A stretch of 64,000 nucleotides of DNA from Dictyostelium discoideum. Lineage: Eukaryota. Positions 4,032 to 62,255 of this stretch are shown piece after piece (position 1 is the first letter of the stretch; the number at the start of each line of letters is the position of its first letter). The position numbers and the translations under genes are program-made. The DNA lies in assembly GCA_000004695.1 (NCBI GenBank), contig CM000153.2, forward strand, positions 4,416,001-4,480,000. Reading direction: 5' to 3'. The notes beneath the pieces were generated by a model that was given only the letters and a program-made list of their open reading frames with translations, ran no database searches and was not told the origin of the DNA.

Positions 4032-4446
4032 TTTTTCAATAATTGAAATTAAAAAAAAAATAAATCAAATTAAATTTTACTTTCAAAATTTGGCGCTTTT
4101 TTTTTTTTTTTTCATAAAAAAATTAAAAATTAAAAAAAAAAATTAAAAAAAAATCCCTCCAAAAAATTCACGTAAAAATTTGGTTGAAAAATTCATGTGG
4201 AAATTTGGTTGAACCAAAGCTAACAACCAACCAAAACAAAATTTAATTTTAATTTTAATTTTAATTTTATTTTTAATATTAAAAAGGTAGTAATAATATT
4301 TTTAAATAATAAACAAATAAACAAATAAACAAATAAACAAATAAACAAACAAATAAATAAATAAATTAATAAATAAATTAATAAATAAATAAATTAATAA
4401 ATAAATAAATAAATAATATTTGTAAATAAATAAATAAAACAAAAAC

Positions 4447-5068
4447 ATGACGCTAAGGCTAGATACATCGCTAAAAAGGGGAGCTAGTAGGAATATACCA
4501 CCAATACCTACATTTAGTTCAGTATCGAATGAAAATTTATCCTCATCACCATATACTAGTAGTTCATACTACTCCTCAAATTGTGAAAGTTTAGATAGTA
4601 TTGGTGATATATCAATAGATTCTTCAGTTTATAGTTCTAGTGAAATTGAATTTGTTGGAAATGGTGATAAAAAAAAAAACTTTATTAATAACAATAATAA
4701 TAATAATGGTAATAAATATGATTTTTCCAATTTATTAGAAACTCCAAAATTAAAATTTTCACCATCAACTGGAAGAACCAAAAATAATAATAATAATAAT
4801 AATAATAATATTAATAATAATAATTATAAAAAGAATGATAACCAAAAGAAAAATTTTAAATATATAGAAGATAATGAAAGTGATTACCTTGATGATGAAA
4901 ATGATGAGGAAAATGTTGATATTGATCTATCGATTTTAAATGTAAATTTTAAAATTATAAATGAAAACAATAGCCAAAATAATAATAATAATAAATATCA
5001 AATTAATAATAATATGCAAAAAACGGGTGGTAGGAATGGTAGTGTTTTCTTTGTCAATAATAACAACA

Positions 5069-10367: not shown

Positions 10368-12351
10368 TTAAGTATAAGTTGGATCAACATAAGAATAAAG
10401 AATTGCATCTTTGATACCATGTAACATTTGAATATTTGAATAAGAAGATTCAGAGAAAATGTTATTATAGATTTTAGTGATGAATAAAGCTTCTTGGAAA
10501 GGAGATAAAATGAAACCAAGTTTTTCATAAGTTTGAATGAGAGTTTCATTTTCATGGTCAATATTTTCTTTTAATTTATCTAATAAACCACTAAGTTGTA
10601 CAAGATGTGATTGAACTGGACTACTGATATTATTTGAGATATCGACATCGGTACTGATGGTGGTGGTAGTGGTAGTGGTGGTAGAAGTAGAGGTGGTAGT
10701 TGTGGTGGTTGAAGTAGAGGCTGCGGTTTTCTTTGATTTGGTATTACCACCATTATTAACGGTACCATTGAATACTTTACTATGGTAGTATTCTCTGATC
10801 TCTCTGTTGAGATGAGTTCTTTCTTTGATAATCTTTTTATGTCTAAGATTACTTTCTTGTCTGAGTTGTCTAACACGATTCTCTTGTTCAGGATTAATAT
10901 TTGCTTCGTTGCAAAAGTTTGACCACCATTTGGTTGGTTCCAATTGTTCATAAGGTGATGGCATATCACCAATGGGTGAACTATTTGGATCAGAATGTTG
11001 TTTCTCTGATGGATCTTCAAATGGACAAGATTGAGCAGGCGAGATTTCACCATCCAATAATGCAAGTTTGGCTTGAGTACATGGATTAACGATTTGTTTA
11101 ATTTGGTTGATGTAAAGATCTTGACGATTTTTCAAAGTGCTGTAGAATTGTTTCAAAGTTGTGGTTAAGTCATCTTGAGTGGTGATACTCATATCAACTT
11201 GTAATCTATCGACCAATACACTAATATCAGGTTCAGTTTCAACAACTGGAGTACTTGGATCAGCGCTACCATCTTGTTGTTGTTGATCGAATTGATCAAA
11301 GTCATCCTCATCTTCATCCTCACTACCGGTACAACCTGGAATATCGGATTTGTTTGGTAATTGACCACCACTCTTGAGAATATTATTTTCATGAAGTAAT
11401 TTTTTCAATATTTTTTTGGAATCATAAAGTTCTTTCTTTAATCTTTCATTCTCTTGAACGATATCATCCAATCTATCCTCGACTTCATTGACATATTGTT
11501 TCTTTCTTTGTCTGTAATTTCTACTTGCTAAATTTTGACTTGCTCTTCTTCTTGTCTTTTGTTTCTCACTTAGATGAGCCAATGTCTCTTCAAAATCATG
11601 TGGTAAAATATATGATGAAATGGGTGATTTATTTGGTAATAAATCAACCTTTGGACAAGCAGCTGTGGTTGCTGGAATATTACTAGCCTTTGAAGTACTC
11701 TTTGTTGAACTATTTTGTGTCAATTGTTGAATCATTTGTTGAATTGGTTGAATTGGTGTTATTGATGAATTTATTGTTGGTTGTTTTTGTTGTGGTTGTT
11801 GTGGTGGTTGTGGTGATTGTGGTTGAATAGTAGTTGGTTGAATAATTGGTGGTCTTTGAACAGTTTTTTGTTGTGTTTGTTGTAGTTGTTGTGGTTGTTG
11901 TTGTGGTTGTTGTTGTGGTTGTTGTGGTGATTGTTGGGGTTGTAATTGTTGTGGTGATTGTTGTGGTGATTGTTGTGGTGATTGTGGTAGTTGTGGTGAT
12001 TGTGGTTGATGTAATTGTTGTTGTTGTTGTTGTTGGATTTGTTGTTGTAATAATAGTTGTTGTTGTTGTTGTTGTTGTAATATTTTTTGTTGTTGCTGAA
12101 TTATTTGTTGATTTTGATCATGGTTTGGAGATAATTGTTGTGGAATAACTTGGTCTTGTGAAGTTGTTGGTTGTAAATAAGAAGATGGTGTTATTGGTGA
12201 ATTGGTATTACTTCCATTGTAAGCATTAAAATTTCCTCCACTATTTTGTAAGTATGTAGTTTGAGGTACAGGTGAACTTGTATTACTTCCATTATTACTA
12301 TGTTGAGATATAAAATTTGAAGCCATATTACTATTATAATTTATATTATTA

Positions 12352-12391
<40 letters not shown>

Positions 12392-13216
12392 TATTATTGA
12401 TATTATTACTATTATTTAATTGAGGAATAGAAGAAGGTATTCCAGGTGATGAAGGGATTGATAACATTGTATTTGATTGAATTGGTGTTGAATAATAGGG
12501 TGATGCAGATTCTTGTATTGGTGATATTTGTTGTTGCTGTTGTTGTTGTTGTTGTTGTATTTGTTGTTGTTGTATTTGTTGTTGTTGTAATTGTTGTTGT
12601 TGTTGTTGTAATTGTTGTTGTTGTTGTAATTGTTGTTGTTGCAATTGTTGTTGTTGTTGTTGTTGTTGAATTCCATAAAAAGAACCACCATCAACATTTG
12701 TATTTAGAGCAGATAATAACATTAAATTTTTATCTTCAGAGAAAGGTAAGTAACCCATTGGCTCGTCACCAAACATTAAGACCATTTTTTGTTGTTGTTG
12801 TTGCTCCAACTGTAATTGTAAAGCTGCTTGTTGTTGTTGAATTTGTTGTTGCTGTTGTTGTAATAATTGTTGTTGTTGTTGTAATTGTTGTTGGGTGGTT
12901 TGTTGTAATAATTGTTGTTGTTGTTGTTGTTGATAACCATTTGTAACTTTAACAATATTATTCAATGCTGAGGATGTTGCCATTAACATATTGTTATTAA
13001 TATTACCATTATTATTATTATTGTTATTGTTATTATTATTATTTACATTATTTTGACTATTTATATTTACATTATTATTGTTGTTATTATTAATATTTAC
13101 ATTATTTCCATACATATCATATGATGAAGTTTGTTGTTGGTACCCATTATTGTTATTGTAATTATTGTTATTCCCATTATTATAAGATTGTTGGAAATTA
13201 TTATTATTATTATTAA

Positions 13217-13270
<54 letters not shown>

Positions 13271-13367
13271 TATTTAAATATTGTTGCTGTTGTGGTTGTT
13301 GTTGTGGAAAAAAATTATTATTCCCATTATAAATATAGTTTCCTTGTTGAGGAATACTTTGATACAT
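10368..13367 (-). CDS. bZIP transcription factor, Gln/Asn-rich (999 aa).
   Basis: Basic region KQKTRRRASQNLASRNYRQRKKQYVNEVEDRLDDIVQENERLKKELYDSKKILKKLLHENNILK fits the N-x2-AA-x2-(C/Y)R-x-RK signature, followed by a leucine heptad zipper. Long poly-Q/N and PQ repeats. Confidence 0.7.
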
Positions 13368-13719
13368 GATGTTTATTTGAAGTATTGTATTTATATCTTA
13401 ATATTAATTTTAATTTTTTACGATTTTAAAAGTGTGATGGGCTGATTATTGGGAAGGAGGTTCAAAATTTGCAGGATATTTTTGAAAAAATTGAAAAAAA
13501 AAAAAAAAAGGAGCACGTGGACTTTTTATGTGTGCCGTAATCCAAAAACTCGAATGTTTTTTTTTTTTCTTTTTTTTTTTTTTTAAAATAAAGTTTGTGT
13601 TTTGAAATGAAAAAAAAAGAAAAATAATTAAAGTAATTTAATAATAAAAAAAAAAAATCTTATATGATTAATTATTACTATTTGTTTTATTATTATTATT
13701 ATAAAATTTAAATTATTAC

Positions 13720-27399: not shown

Positions 27400-28466
27400 A
27401 TGGAAGTATCAACAGAAATTTTGTATAATAATAATAACAATAATATTATCAACCCAAATTTAATAAATAATGATAATGATAATAATAATAAAAATAAAGA
27501 TGAAAATTGGGTGAAAATTGATCAATCTGAAGCACCAAATAAATTTATTCAATATGTTGATGAAGCATCTAAACAGGATCAAGTATGTAAATCTTTTAAT
27601 TTTTTTTTTTTTTTTCCAAAACACTTTAATCTAATATTTTTTTTTTTGATTATTTTTTTTTTTTTTAAATAGATTATAGCTCATACAAGATATTCAACTA
27701 GACAATTATATTTACAACCAGGTCAAAAAGTAATGGATTGCGGTTGTGGAGCTGGAAAAGATTTAGGAAGATTAGAATCAATGGTCGAAGGTAATGGTAT
27801 CGTTGTTGGTATGGATATTTCGAGAGAAATGGTTGAATGTGCTAAAAGTAGAATGTCACATTTACCAAATGTTAAAATCTTTATTGGTGATGCTTCTCGT
27901 ATTCCAATAGATGATAATTATTTCGATGCGTATGTGTTTATTTTTTTTTTTTTAAAAAAAAAAAAAATTATTTTTTTATTAATTTATTTATTTTAAAATT
28001 TAGAATTAGATGTGAAAGATTATTACAACATGTAATTAATCCAGATTTAGTAATTAGTGAAATGACAAGAGTAATAAAAAGTGGTGGTAGAATCGTTATA
28101 ACCGATGCAGACTGGTCATCAACATCTGTATCAATTCCAAAGAATATTGAAGAGATTAATAAAAAGATATTAAACGATGTTGTATTTAATGCTCATCCAA
28201 CTATTGGCTTACATCTTAGAGGAAGAATGGCAAAGAATCCACAATTGGAAAATTTGGAAATATTCGCACAATGTTTATATACCGATAGTTTAGCAATGGC
28301 CGATGAATTCGTTTGGTTAGGTGAAAGAGGTAAAATGGCATGTGCTCAAAAATTAATCACCGAAGATGAATTTAATTTCTGGAGAGAAACCTTGGAAAGA
28401 ATGGACGAAGAAGGTAGTTTTGTTTTCACTATGAATATTTTTACTGTTAGTGCTTCTAAAAAGTAA
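27400..28466 (+). CDS. SAM-dependent methyltransferase (UbiE/COQ5 / Methyltransf_11 type). Three exons: 27400..27582, 27673..27929, 28004..28466.
   Basis: Exon 2 carries VMDCGCGAGKDLGRL (motif I) and VVGMDISREMVECAK. Exon 3 carries RVIKSGGRIVITD (motif III). Donors GTATGT and GTATGT; acceptors AATAG and TTTAG; phases 0 and 2 are consistent. Confidence 0.7.
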
Positions 28467-28849
28467 ATCACAAAAAAAAAAAAAATTTATAAAAAAAAAC
28501 AAAAAACAAACACCAAAAAAAAAAAACATAATGATGATAATATAACACTAATACACTAAAAAAAACCCCTCAAAATACGCACGCATTACTTTTTTTTCAC
28601 AAAAAAAAAAAAAATTAAAACACAAATAATAATAAAATTTAAATGTAACTTTTGTTTTTTTTTTTTTAAAAAGAAATTTAAATGTGTCAACTTTATTCAT
28701 TAATTTTAATAAAAAGAAAAATAAAAATCTGTTTTGTTTAAGAAAAGAAAAAAATGAATTAAATTAGTATTAATGATTTTTTTTTTTTGAATATCTTTTT
28801 TTTTTTTTTTTTTGAAAAATATTTGGACAATAATGTTGTTTAAAGTAAC

Positions 28850-29060
28850 TCAGAGACAATAAATGATCGATCAAAGCTAGAGACGAGAACACAAATGATG
28901 TCTGCTAGTTCATACGCAAATTACGTTCATCACTGGAACTGAAAACAACATGTCGACACTGTCTCTTGAAAGTAAATATTTTTTTTACATACCTCAAATA
29001 ATTATTTAAACAAGAGCAGAAATGGAAAGCTAGCTAGACGAAAGGACAATAATAAACTGG
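28850..29060. ncRNA. GC-enriched non-coding island and candidate small RNA gene (class unresolved).
   Basis: About 200 nt of complex sequence (about 40% GC) in otherwise homopolymeric intergenic DNA, with no ORF. On the minus strand there is a perfect C box GTGATGA with CTGA about 85 nt downstream, but the terminal stem is weak. A partial ACGCAAATT(A)CG U6-like string is not convincing. Confidence 0.2.
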
Positions 29061-29447
29061 AGAAAGAAAAATAATAAAAATAAAAAGAATGTTAAATTAA
29101 TAATTGAACTTTTTTTTATAAAAAATTATTATTTTTATTATTATTTTTTTTAATTGATTTATCAATGTTGCTTCAGATGTTAGTTTAGGTAGCTTGGGTT
29201 TTTCAACAGGTCAACGTTCTAACAAATGCCATTTTTTTCATCACAACAACACTTTGGTCAAATTTTTTTTTTTTATTTTTTTTTCGTTTTTTTTTTTTTA
29301 CACTTACTCTCAAAATTATAAAGTTGATGAAAAAAAAAAATAGAATAAAAAAAAAAATCATGTTTTTATACTTTAAAAAAAAAAAAAAAAAAAAAAATTT
29401 AAAAAAAAAAAAAATTACTTTTTTTTTTTTTTGATTCGGTTTTATCG

Positions 29448-29459
29448 AGTCACGTGACT
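29448..29459. promoter_or_regulatory. Perfect 12-bp palindrome AGTCACGTGACT (E-box / G-box; core GTCACGTGAC of the CLEAR / Cbf1 type).
   Basis: Seen directly, about 720 bp upstream of the NXF-like gene's ATG. A GC-rich perfect palindrome in an 80% AT region is unlikely by chance. Confidence 0.35.
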
Positions 29460-30181
29460 TGTTCTATACTTTTCAAAAAAATTAATGGGAGTTTACATTT
29501 ATTATTTATAAATTATTTATTTTAAGATATATTATCGATTTAAATAAAAAAAGTTGATATAATAAATTTTTTTTTTTTTTTTTTTTTTTTTTCTTTTTTC
29601 TTTTCTCTATAATTTTTAAATCTCTTATTAATAATTTTTATTTTTTTTTTTCTTTGATTTATTTTCCCTTTTTTTTTTTTATTTCTTTTCTACTCTTTTT
29701 AAAATTTTTTTTTTTTTTTTTTATTATTTATTTTATTTATTTATTTTTTTTATTTATTTTATTTTTTTTTTCTTATTTATTTTGGGATAAACCAATTATT
29801 CTTTTATTCATGAATTATTTTCCTTAATTAAATTTTTTTATTTTTTTTTTTTTTTTTTTGTTTTTTATTTTTAATTTTTTTTTTATTTTTTTATTATTTT
29901 TTTTTTTTTTTCATTTTTCACTTTTCGTCAGTACATCGTTTTTTTTATTTTATTTTTATATTACAACCTTTTTTTAATTATTGATTTGTTTTTAATACGC
30001 ACCTATAAATTCATTCACATAAATAATCTTACTTCATAGTATAATAGATAAATAAAAAATAAAATAAAATAAAAATAAAAATAAAAATATAATAAAAAAA
30101 AAAAAAAAAAAAAAAATAAATAAATAAATAAATAAAAAAAAAAATAAATAAATAAACAAATATATATAAATAAATATAAAA

Positions 30182-33348
<3,167 letters not shown>

Positions 33349-35077: not shown

Positions 35078-38000
35078 TGAATCCAATTCATGATAGAACT
35101 TCAGATTATCACAAATACTTAAAAGTTAAACAAGGTGATTCTGATTTATTTAAACTTACTGTTTCAGATAAGAGATACATTTGGTATAATCCAGATCCAA
35201 AAGAAAGAGATTCATATGAATGTGGTGAAATTGTTTCAGAAACCTCTGATTCTTTCACATTCAAAACCGTTGATGGTCAAGACAGACAAGTCAAAAAGGA
35301 TGATGCCAATCAACGTAATCCAATCAAATTCGATGGTGTCGAAGATATGTCTGAATTATCATACCTCAATGAACCAGCAGTTTTCCACAATCTCCGTGTT
35401 CGTTACAATCAAGATTTAATTTACACCTATTCAGGTCTCTTTTTGGTTGCCGTCAATCCATTCAAGAGAATTCCAATCTACACTCAAGAGATGGTTGATA
35501 TCTTCAAAGGTCGTAGAAGAAATGAAGTTGCCCCACATATTTTCGCCATTTCTGATGTTGCCTATCGTTCAATGTTAGATGATCGTCAAAATCAATCACT
35601 CTTAATCACTGGTGAATCTGGTGCTGGTAAGACTGAAAACACCAAAAAGGTCATTCAATATCTTGCATCTGTCGCTGGTCGTAATCAAGCCAATGGTAGT
35701 GGTGTATTGGAACAACAAATTCTCCAAGCCAATCCAATCCTTGAAGCTTTTGGTAATGCCAAAACCACCCGTAACAACAATTCATCTCGTTTCGGTAAAT
35801 TCATTGAAATTCAATTCAACAGTGCTGGTTTCATTAGTGGTGCTTCAATTCAATCCTACCTTTTAGAGAAATCACGTGTCGTTTTCCAATCTGAAACCGA
35901 ACGTAATTATCACATTTTCTATCAACTCTTAGCTGGTGCCACCGCCGAAGAAAAGAAAGCTCTTCACTTGGCTGGTCCAGAATCATTCAACTACTTAAAT
36001 CAAAGTGGTTGTGTTGATATCAAAGGTGTCTCTGATAGTGAAGAATTCAAAATCACTCGTCAAGCTATGGACATTGTTGGTTTCTCACAAGAAGAACAAA
36101 TGTCAATCTTTAAGATCATTGCTGGTATCTTACATTTAGGTAACATCAAATTCGAAAAAGGTGCTGGTGAAGGTGCTGTCCTCAAAGACAAAACCGCCCT
36201 CAACGCTGCTTCAACCGTCTTTGGTGTCAATCCATCAGTCCTTGAAAAGGCTCTCATGGAACCACGTATTTTAGCCGGTCGTGATTTAGTTGCTCAACAT
36301 CTCAACGTTGAAAAATCCTCATCATCAAGAGACGCTCTTGTCAAAGCTCTCTATGGTCGTCTTTTCCTCTGGTTGGTCAAAAAGATCAACAATGTCCTCT
36401 GTCAAGAGAGAAAAGCTTACTTTATTGGTGTTTTGGATATTTCAGGTTTTGAAATTTTCAAAGTCAATTCATTCGAACAATTATGTATCAATTATACCAA
36501 TGAAAAACTCCAACAATTCTTCAATCACCATATGTTCAAATTGGAACAAGAAGAATATCTTAAAGAGAAAATCAATTGGACTTTCATCGATTTTGGTCTT
36601 GATTCACAAGCCACTATCGATTTAATTGATGGTCGTCAACCACCAGGTATTTTAGCTCTTTTGGATGAACAATCTGTTTTCCCAAATGCCACCGATAATA
36701 CTTTAATCACCAAACTCCACAGTCACTTTAGCAAGAAGAACGCCAAATACGAAGAACCACGTTTCTCCAAAACCGAATTTGGTGTTACCCATTATGCTGG
36801 TCAAGTCATGTATGAGATTCAAGATTGGTTAGAAAAGAACAAAGATCCATTACAACAAGATCTCGAACTTTGCTTCAAAGATTCATCAGACAACGTTGTC
36901 ACCAAACTTTTCAATGATCCAAACATTGCCAGTCGTGCAAAGAAAGGTGCAAACTTTATCACTGTCGCCGCTCAATACAAGGAACAATTAGCCTCACTCA
37001 TGGCCACCCTTGAAACCACCAACCCACATTTCGTTCGTTGTATCATTCCAAACAACAAACAATTACCAGCCAAACTCGAAGATAAAGTTGTCCTCGACCA
37101 ATTACGTTGCAATGGTGTCCTCGAAGGTATTCGTATTACTCGTAAAGGTTTCCCAAATCGTATTATCTATGCCGATTTCGTCAAACGTTACTATTTATTA
37201 GCTCCAAACGTTCCAAGAGACGCTGAAGACTCACAAAAAGCCACCGATGCTGTTCTCAAACATCTTAACATTGATCCAGAACAATATCGTTTCGGTATCA
37301 CCAAGATTTTCTTCCGTGCCGGTCAATTAGCTCGTATTGAAGAAGCTCGTGAACAACGTATCTCTGAAATCATCAAAGCCATTCAAGCTGCCACTCGTGG
37401 TTGGATCGCTCGTAAAGTCTACAAACAAGCACGTGAACACACTGTTGCTGCTCGTATCATCCAACAAAATCTCCGTGCTTACATTGATTTCAAATCATGG
37501 CCATGGTGGAAACTCTTCTCAAAGGCTCGTCCATTATTAAAGAGAAGAAACTTTGAAAAGGAAATCAAAGAAAAGGAAAGAGAAATCTTAGAACTCAAAT
37601 CTAATCTCACCGACTCTACCACTCAAAAGGATAAATTAGAGAAATCACTCAAAGATACTGAATCCAATGTACTCGATCTCCAACGTCAACTCAAAGCTGA
37701 AAAAGAAACCCTCAAAGCTATGTACGATAGCAAGGATGCCTTAGAAGCTCAAAAACGTGAATTAGAAATCCGTGTTGAAGATATGGAATCTGAACTCGAC
37801 GAAAAGAAATTAGCTTTGGAAAACCTCCAAAACCAAAAACGTTCAGTCGAAGAAAAAGTCAGAGACTTGGAAGAAGAATTACAAGAGGAACAAAAATTAC
37901 GTAATACCCTTGAAAAATTAAAGAAGAAATACGAAGAGGAATTAGAAGAAATGAAACGTGTCAATGACGGTCAATCTGATACCATCTCTCGTTTAGAAAA

Positions 38001-61316: not shown

Positions 61317-62255
61317 TACAATATTATTATTATTTATAATTTATAGGAAGTTATTAAACAAACTGGATATGATTCAAAAGCTGATATTTGGAGTATGGGT
61401 ATTACAGCATTAGAGATGGCAAAAGGAGAACCACCAAGAGCCGATTTACATCCAATGAGAGCATTATTTTTAATTCCAAAAGATCCACCACCAACACTCG
61501 AAGGTAATTTCTCAAAAGGGTTCAAAGAATTTTGTGCACTTTGTTTGAATAAAGATCCAAATCAAAGACCAACAGCAAAAGATTTATTAAAACATAAATT
61601 TATAAAGGCAGCAAAGAAGACTAGCAGCTTAACTGATCTCATCGAAAGAAGACAAAAATGGTTACAATTGAATGGAAATAATGCTGATGATGAAAATGAT
61701 GATTTAGATAGAGATGCCAAATCAAATGAAGAAGATTTTGGCTGGGAATTCCCAACAATTAAACAAAAATCACCAGTTGCTGTTCAAGAACAACAACAAA
61801 CCCCACAAAAACCAACTGTAGTATCAACTCCAATTAAAGAACAACAACAACAACAACAACCAACACCTGTAACAACACCACAACAACCTGTAACAACAAC
61901 CACCACAACACCAACTACTGAAACCAAAGTAAGATCATTATCAAATAGTTCACAAACCACACCAGTTAAAACTACTGTTGCTGCAACCACTGCACCTGCA
62001 ACTACACCAGCTTCAAATGCACCAACTTCAACAACACCAAATGGTGCCGCTGTCACTCAACAACAAGCACCAAGAGCCTCTGCTCTTACCTCTGTCATTT
62101 ATCCAGTTTTATCGAAATTACTTAAAAATACATCTGATGAAAATGTTATCAATGCTTTGGCTCAACTTAAAATGGCATTTGATAATGCTGAAAAAGCAAA
62201 GCCTGGTATCACTCACAGTTTAATCGCACAAATCATTGAAACCCTTAAAAGATAA
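60218..62255 (+). CDS. svkA: Severin kinase, a Ste20/GCK-III (MST3/MST4/STK25-type) Ser/Thr kinase. Four exons: 60218..60303, 60697..60904, 61018..61251, 61347..62255. The spliced product is exactly 478 aa.
   Basis: [20 protein letters not shown] / [69 protein letters not shown] / [67 protein letters not shown] / [30 protein letters not shown]... This is close to 70% identical to human MST3 across the domain. Donors are GTATAT, GTAAAT, GTAAGT; phases 2, 0, 0. Confidence 0.85.
60480..60640. repeat. (GAT)about 50 microsatellite in svkA intron 1.
   Basis: Seen directly. It generates the spurious poly-M and poly-I ORFs at 60464..60964 and 60388..60702. Confidence 0.9.

Follow-up and report, generated by a model that had tools for sequence, protein, structure and literature searches.

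The interval between the methyltransferase and NXF genes

The DNA considered here is a 64-kb window of Dictyostelium discoideum chromosome 4, and all positions are those of the window, obtained by subtracting 4,416,000 from the published chromosome 4 coordinates. A methyltransferase gene with its stop codon at 28466 and a multi-exon gene for an mRNA export factor of the NXF1/Mex67 type (30182 to approximately 33260, plus strand), whose identities are both upheld by Pfam, border an interval that itself contains genes, namely those of the box C/D snoRNAs OR2 (29171-29247) and DdR8 (= CD8, 28849-28936), both on the minus strand. The latter gives a full-length match to Rfam RF01576 with 123.8 bits, and at the OR2 position a terminal stem and a box C/D unit can be recognized. 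The two genes correspond to the published CD8 (= DdR8) at chr4 4444847-4444936(-) and the orphan OR2 at chr4 4445171-4445247(-) (PMC8817022 Table S5), where both are classed as intergenic and no promoter is described for either (PMC8817022).

On the far side of OR2 from CD8 lies a perfect 12-bp palindrome, AGTCACGTGACT, at 29448-29459, of which positions 29448-29458 read AGTCACGTGAC. The 10-mer GTCACGTGAC within it (29449-29458) occurs only once in the window; it consists of a CACGTG hexamer with symmetric flanks, as in the class-B E-box sequence, and it is identical to the consensus 10-mer of the CLEAR element of animals. The palindrome is set in DNA with a local GC content of 0.11-0.22, and is separated by 722 bp from the NXF-like ATG at 30182, downstream of it, and by 982 bp from the methyltransferase stop on the other side. 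The initial annotation had described the site correctly in these respects, as a perfect 12-bp palindrome with flanks of about 80% AT, some 720 bp from the NXF-like ATG and about 1 kb from the methyltransferase. Because of the two minus-strand snoRNA genes in the interval, the gene nearest to the palindrome is OR2, on the minus strand at a distance of ~200 bp, rather than NXF, which is farther away.

The NXF gene, whose orthologues carry NXF_NTF2 and TAP_C domains, has a conserved block of its own, ATTTTTCACTTTTCGTCA at 29913-29930 (+), 259 bp upstream of its ATG. The block is invariant apart from one indel in four group-4 taxa, at 259-369 bp upstream of the NXF ATG, includes a CGTCA (TGACG) half-site, and is a candidate NXF-proximal promoter element; a TATAAA is found at ~30005, also upstream of NXF. 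In the AX4 annotation the gene is divided into two models, DDB_G0286415 with the RRM part (255 aa) and DDB_G0286455 with the NTF2 and TAP-C part (383 aa). Another D. discoideum strain, like D. citrinum and D. dimigraforme, has one undivided NXF model of 550-554 aa, and the division in AX4 is probably an error. The NXF model of C. fasciculata (602 aa, ATG at 5001 of its locus, L007) begins in sequence that overlaps, on the opposite strand, the stretch before the first splice donor of the snoRNA unit (L007 ~4990-5030), and its N-terminus is probably mis-called.

Occurrence of the palindrome in the window

In whole-window dinucleotide shuffles GTCACGTGAC arose in 0/100 cases, a significance that looks too strong in that such shuffles blend coding with non-coding composition. 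Block shuffles of 100 bp, which preserve local composition, lead, for that half of the window which is low in GC, to an expectation of 0.05 GC-rich 12-mer palindromes with six or more G/C (P = 0.05) and of 0.008 per window for the exact 10-mer, which on scaling to the 34-Mb genome amounts to a handful of copies by chance. With chance copies of this number to be reckoned with, the occurrence of the palindrome by itself proves nothing, and statistically the site is no more than mildly unusual. CACGTG is not significantly enriched in the window (5 observed against 2.07 expected, P = 0.06, block shuffles), nor are TCACGTGA-like words (11 one-mismatch 8-mers against 8 expected).

Three of the five CACGTG sites of the window are in GC-rich coding sequence. 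They lie at 35873, 37430 and 40496 within the coding sequence of a 2116-aa gene downstream of NXF, which from its length and sequence is probably the gene for the myosin II heavy chain. Coding counterparts are present in the relatives' loci (L002 12288, L004 9854, L008 10267), one CACGTG of this gene being kept across species as coding sequence, and the sites inside the gene are no regulatory candidates. The other non-coding CACGTG of the window, GAGCACGTGGAC at 13514-13519, precedes by ~150 bp the start codon of a bZIP gene (ORF 10368-13367, minus strand) that encodes a glutamine/asparagine-rich protein of 999 aa with Pfam bZIP_1 and bZIP_2 matches; GAGCACGTGGAC could be an autoregulatory or bZIP-type site. 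Two further GC-containing perfect 12-mer palindromes, GACAACGTTGTC and TGGGAATTCCCA (36889-36900 and 61743-61754), are found in GC-richer DNA that is probably coding.

Conservation of the palindrome among dictyostelids

NXF orthologues from seven dictyostelids were retrieved with a long concatenated NXF query, a single NXF exon having given no match, and their loci were compared. The order methyltransferase, DdR8, OR2, NXF and 2116-aa gene is kept in D. cf. discoideum, D. citrinum and D. dimigraforme, the OR2 copies of the group-4 relatives show 97-99% identity, and the exact sequence AGTCACGTGAC is present at the orthologous place in all three species. The twelfth base of the palindrome is a C in D. 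dimigraforme, and the constrained unit is thus shorter than 12 bp, consisting of the 10-bp palindrome and one flanking A.

A four-way alignment of the ~934-nt interval between OR2 and the NXF ATG was scored at its G/C positions, which are the informative sites in DNA that is 87% AT. Invariant positions make up 22 of the 102, six of them in the palindrome, and the longest invariant G/C-containing runs outside the snoRNAs are AGTCACGTGAC and GTTTTTATACT, of 11 nt each, the latter being the TATA block described below. This pattern indicates that the palindrome is under constraint in a small clade of close relatives of D. discoideum, its conservation footprint comprising three effectively independent lineages, all of them close. 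Thus the earlier view of the site as a cis-element holds, in that an 11-nt core is invariant in four group-4 taxa within AT-rich DNA that has otherwise diverged, but neither the gene to which it was given nor the class of factor proposed to read it is supported by the evidence discussed below.

In C. fasciculata and H. album, where the snoRNA pair is present, the palindrome was not found in the equivalent promoter region, and it is therefore not an ancestral, indispensable part of the snoRNA promoter. T. lacteum has lost the linkage between the snoRNAs and NXF, and D. purpureum was left out of the comparison, its contig ending 635 bp upstream of the NXF ATG in sequence of poor quality. A CCGTCAGACGTAAG in H. 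album, ~150 nt before donor 1, was considered as an equivalent ACGT-core site and is within chance for the composition. A search for orthologues of the methyltransferase led only to Acytostelium, at a locus that has no synteny, no TCACGTGA and no snoRNA match and is uninformative, and exact look-up of the last methyltransferase exon and of the bZIP ORF returned no record.

A spacing-constrained module on the snoRNA side

On the snoRNA side of the palindrome the four taxa share a series of blocks that are met in the same order on the minus strand. The first, AACCGARTC (GAYTCGGTT on the plus strand, 29433-29441), is 4-6 nt from the palindrome, with a spacer that varies in sequence and length. 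It is followed by GTAATTT (29412-29418, minus strand), which is held between an A-run and a T-run at 33-36 bp from the palindrome (36/36/33/35 bp in the four taxa), and by the invariant AGTATAAAAAC (29362-29372, minus strand), a putative TATA box of the snoRNA unit 71-86 bp from the palindrome (86/82/71/82 bp) that reads TATAAAA on the snoRNA strand and then runs into a conserved oligo-T tract. The last block before OR2 is the splice-donor-like TTTTGAG(A/T)GTAAGT (29302-29315, minus strand, GT at 29307-29306), 60/60/59/60 bp from the TATA block and ~60 nt before the snoRNA. The spacing toward the other side is far looser, the palindrome being 475/447/409/396 bp from the NXF-side conserved block TTTCGTCA and 734/745/778/763 bp from the NXF ATG. 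The tight spacing on the snoRNA side and the drifting spacing on the NXF side argue that the palindrome is part of a compact, spacing-constrained module that belongs to the snoRNA side.

A conserved TATA in the snoRNA orientation with upstream elements at fixed distance is the arrangement of a TATA-type promoter, and in the classical layout of Dictyostelium Pol II promoters, too, an oligo-dT run stands between the TATA box and the start. The palindrome is thus most probably an upstream element of the OR2-CD8 promoter. The explanation that we favor, and that we regard as on balance probable when taken as a whole, is that the palindrome is a constrained binding site for a dimeric sequence-specific factor and would act as the upstream element of a compact Pol II promoter driving the minus-strand OR2-CD8 (DdR8) unit; within the proposed promoter GTAATTT would be located ~35 bp and TATA with oligo-T ~80 bp from the palindrome, and the transcript would have a short first exon ending in the GAG/GTAAGT donor, then OR2, and then CD8. 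Binding, promoter function and the transcription start are here predicted from the arrangement and retention of the blocks. The assignment of the palindrome to the NXF-like gene by the initial annotation is accordingly not retained: OR2-CD8 is nearer, at ~200 bp, and tight spacing is found only to the snoRNA-side blocks. Nevertheless a symmetric site carries no direction in its sequence alone, and since the palindrome is symmetric and the divergent region is 935 bp long, it may as a secondary function also aid the divergent NXF gene.

The palindrome is an ordinary kind of element and is moderately interesting in its context. The accessible literature is silent on the transcription of box C/D snoRNA genes in Amoebozoa, and the precisely spaced combination of palindrome, GTAATTT and TATA offers a concrete candidate promoter for genes of this kind.

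A putative host gene for OR2 and CD8

By short-word BLAST, C. fasciculata and H. album also have OR2-like and CD8-like snoRNAs upstream of NXF, again on the minus strand, and the surroundings of the snoRNAs are organized alike in six genomes. A donor-like G/GTAAGT (or GTATGT, GTAATT, GTAAAT) precedes each box C by 47-70 nt, a branch-like TACTAAT, TACTAAC or TATTAAT lies 55-85 nt beyond box D, with a pyrimidine tract and AG behind it, and the segment between the two snoRNA units is 53-109 nt long and unconserved. The six genomes that agree in this layout represent taxon groups 1, 2 and 4 (window 28690-29340, minus strand; L002 4480-5160, L004 2440-3150, L008 2940-3650, and further L007 4400-5000 and L006 3660-4270). 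Conserved splice signals around each snoRNA together with an unconserved exon suggest a non-coding snoRNA host gene, and it is probable that OR2 and CD8 are intron-encoded, one per intron, in such a gene that has escaped annotation.

The structure implied for D. discoideum begins with an exon 1 that ends at 29308. Intron 1 (29307-29057) would hold OR2 and finish with a branch-like TATTAAT (29102-29096), a pyrimidine tract and CAG (AG at 29058-29057), the whole putative 3' end spanning 29057-29102 on the minus strand. The putative non-coding exon 2 (28993-29056, minus strand) is 64 nt long, is poorly conserved, and ends in TTTGAG before a donor-like GTATGT (GT at 28992-28991). Intron 2 (28992-28729) would hold CD8, its putative 3' end (28729-28769, minus strand) being made up of a branch-like TACTAAT (28769-28763), a pyrimidine tract and AACAG (AG at 28730-28729). 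Exon 3 includes the conserved AATGAATAAA (28692-28701, minus strand), which could serve the host transcript as its polyadenylation signal.

Of the 47 box C/D snoRNAs of D. discoideum 46 have been classed as intergenic, only CD38 being intronic (PMC8817022). If the host gene is real, OR2 and CD8 no longer count as intergenic and the host-gene strategy extends to Amoebozoa.

The snoRNAs themselves retain guide-like segments, GGCATTTGT and AGCTACCT in OR2 of D. discoideum, C. fasciculata and H. album (window 29171-29247, L007 ~4843-4915 and L006 ~4139-4214, all minus strand) and GTAATTTGCGTATGA and CATTTATTGTCTCTGA in CD8. No rRNA target is predicted for the orphan OR2 (PMC8817022). The retention of its two segments across three species suggests that OR2 has a conserved target. 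In addition, putative exon 2 contains CGTCTAGCTAGCTTT and TTTATTATTGTCC (29030-29056, minus strand), which resemble the CD8-internal CGTCTCTAGCTTT and TTTATTGTCTC, a resemblance that hints at an old duplication of a snoRNA unit. CD8 is also flanked by a GTTGTTT upstream and an AAACAAC downstream (28835-28841 and 28955-28949, minus strand), which are complementary, largely conserved, and could form an external stem joining the CD8 ends during processing.

The factor that would read the palindrome

The readers originally proposed were bHLH or bHLH-zip proteins of the Cbf1/Pho4 or MiT/TFE class. A published census of dictyostelid transcription factors reports four HLH families overall and 23 bZIP families; according to its supplement D. 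discoideum has one HLH-domain gene, the TCF25-type LsrA (Tcf25 region), and species outside group 4 have one to three additional HLH factors. The palindrome is distributed in the opposite way to these extra factors, being present in the group-4 taxa and absent from the promoter regions of C. fasciculata and H. album. Going by the published census only, neither a DNA-binding bHLH that would read CACGTG nor a MiT/TFE factor is reported for D. discoideum. A preprint on D. giganteum names bHLH among the domain classes present and gives no detail. In the accessible literature no Dictyostelium homologue of TFEB/MITF was found, nor any CACGTG-, E-box- or TFEB-type link to a Dictyostelium factor, nor any relevant ribosome-biogenesis promoter motif. 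With LsrA as the only HLH gene, the Cbf1/Pho4 and MiT-TFE (CLEAR) reading is weakened, and the reader is probably not a canonical bHLH. A bZIP or an unclassified dimeric factor appears the more plausible reader. Palindromes with an ACGT core are typical targets of bZIP proteins.

These considerations also lead to a variant that we hold possible but tentative, in which the palindrome is a recent upstream activating element of the discoideum/citrinum/dimigraforme clade, serving the host gene opposite NXF and read by a non-bHLH factor. It would include a lineage loss of canonical bHLH proteins, the reader being a bZIP or a member of a new class, and the E-box/CLEAR sequence would then have been re-invented for another reader and another regulon. 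More generally, a functional site in a species whose sole reported HLH gene is a TCF25 homologue would mean that CACGTG is read there by a factor of some other class, a circumstance that advises caution in carrying motif-to-factor assignments over from yeast and animals.

Alternative readings of the site

A rather doubtful alternative is that the palindrome is a shared bidirectional or chromatin-organizing element and not a one-gene activator, a general regulatory factor keeping the divergent snoRNA/NXF region nucleosome-free in the manner of yeast Cbf1, Reb1 and Abf1. A symmetric site between divergent transcription units would suit such a function, the divergent snoRNA-NXF arrangement is ancient, being found in groups 1, 2 and 4, and a TATAAAT-like sequence ~50 bp off on the plus side is present in 3/4 taxa. 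However, the plus-side sequence is unconserved in D. dimigraforme, and the palindrome is off-centre, 200 bp from OR2 as against 720 bp from the NXF ATG.

We think it unlikely that a bHLH or bHLH-zip protein of the Cbf1/Pho4/USF/MiT-TFE type reads the palindrome as a distal E-box serving the NXF-like gene. The position of the palindrome upstream of this plus-strand gene, its retention at every group-4 locus where it is syntenic with NXF, and its identity to the consensus of bHLH-zip factor classes, including TFEB/HLH-30, for which reading of CACGTG is documented in a cited paper, are all compatible with such a function. But the distances to the NXF-side block and to the ATG drift by 44-79 bp while the snoRNA-side spacing is tight, NXF has its own conserved proximal block and TATAAA, CACGTG was not found in the NXF upstream regions of T. 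lacteum, H. album and C. fasciculata, and the census leaves LsrA as the only HLH gene of D. discoideum.

It is quite improbable that the palindrome is functionless and retained by chance, having been noticed by a human reader for its likeness to a famous motif. The handful of such 10-mers expected per genome from composition, and the failure to find the palindrome at the homologous promoter outside the discoideum/citrinum/dimigraforme clade, fit this reading. Against it, 11/11 positions and 6/6 G/C are kept where only 25% (D. dimigraforme) and 52% (D. citrinum) of the G/C positions of the interval are retained, a rough probability of <1e-4 when the number of possible blocks is allowed for, and the spacing to other invariant blocks is fixed.

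Least of all does the evidence favor an element acting at the RNA level, as a precursor hairpin or processing signal or as part of a DUSE-driven small ncRNA gene, a reading that is largely refuted and very improbable: the U6atac-like match at 29391-29476(-) is weak, its 17.5 bits falling far under the gathering score of 33 with high bias, the fold has z = -2.1 on the plus strand but only z = -0.65 on the minus strand, TCCCATTAA, a near-DUSE a short way upstream on the minus strand, is unconserved in D. dimigraforme and is followed by nothing RNA-like at 60 nt, the window shows no enrichment of DUSE words, and the conserved block is only ~30 nt long and lies upstream of a conserved TATA box. 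The same near-match (29490-29482, minus strand) was considered as a DUSE promoter of the snoRNAs and rejected, being ~240 nt from OR2 and thus at the wrong distance as well as unconserved in D. dimigraforme; no exact DUSE was found near OR2 or CD8.

Comparison with known systems

The DUSE, [AT]CCCA[AT]AA at ~60 nt before the start, is a known promoter element of small ncRNA genes that is conserved across dictyostelids, and the accessible literature assigns it to snRNAs and Class I/II RNAs and not to box C/D snoRNAs. Like the DUSE, the palindrome is an upstream element conserved in several dictyostelids, but it differs from it in sequence and position, and no conserved DUSE is present at the OR2-CD8 locus.

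The CLEAR elements of the MiT-TFE factors (TFEB, HLH-30) share with the palindrome the character of a promoter-proximal palindromic site for a dimer. The likeness noted in the initial annotation is real as to the 10-mer, which is identical, but it is one of sequence identity alone: whereas CLEAR sites are found in lysosomal and autophagy promoters, often in several copies, there is one copy in 64 kb here, and its neighbors are the OR2/CD8 snoRNAs, an NXF-type export factor and a methyltransferase. Moreover, the palindrome is restricted to one clade of group 4, and no MiT/TFE-type or other canonical bHLH is reported for D. discoideum.

The sites of yeast Cbf1 and Pho4, RTCACGTG, are found in growth-related promoters and help to organize promoter chromatin. 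They have the same core and T/A flanks as the palindrome; in contrast to yeast, the bHLH-zip class is not detected in the dictyostelid lineage and there is no regulon evidence at this locus.

The plant-type G-box is an ACGT-core palindrome bound by a bZIP dimer. It shares CACGTG with the palindrome but not the flanks, which are GT..AC here as opposed to those of the classical CCACGTGG. There are 23 families of bZIP proteins in Dictyostelia, and one bZIP gene with an upstream CACGTG is in the window itself; binding of a Dictyostelium bZIP to the palindrome sequence is not reported in the accessible literature.

In animals, E-boxes (Myc/Max, USF) are found in the promoters of non-coding snoRNA host genes and of ribosome-biogenesis genes. 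To our knowledge Myc/Max is not known in Amoebozoa, and two further differences are evident: the host structure of OR2-CD8 is deduced from conserved splice signals only, and the palindrome is not found in all Dictyostelia, though the host gene is. The animal host genes nevertheless provide the closest functional analogy to the arrangement favored here, in that CACGTG would stand upstream of a TATA-containing Pol II promoter and that, in both cases, box C/D snoRNAs appear to be encoded in the introns of genes with poorly conserved exons.
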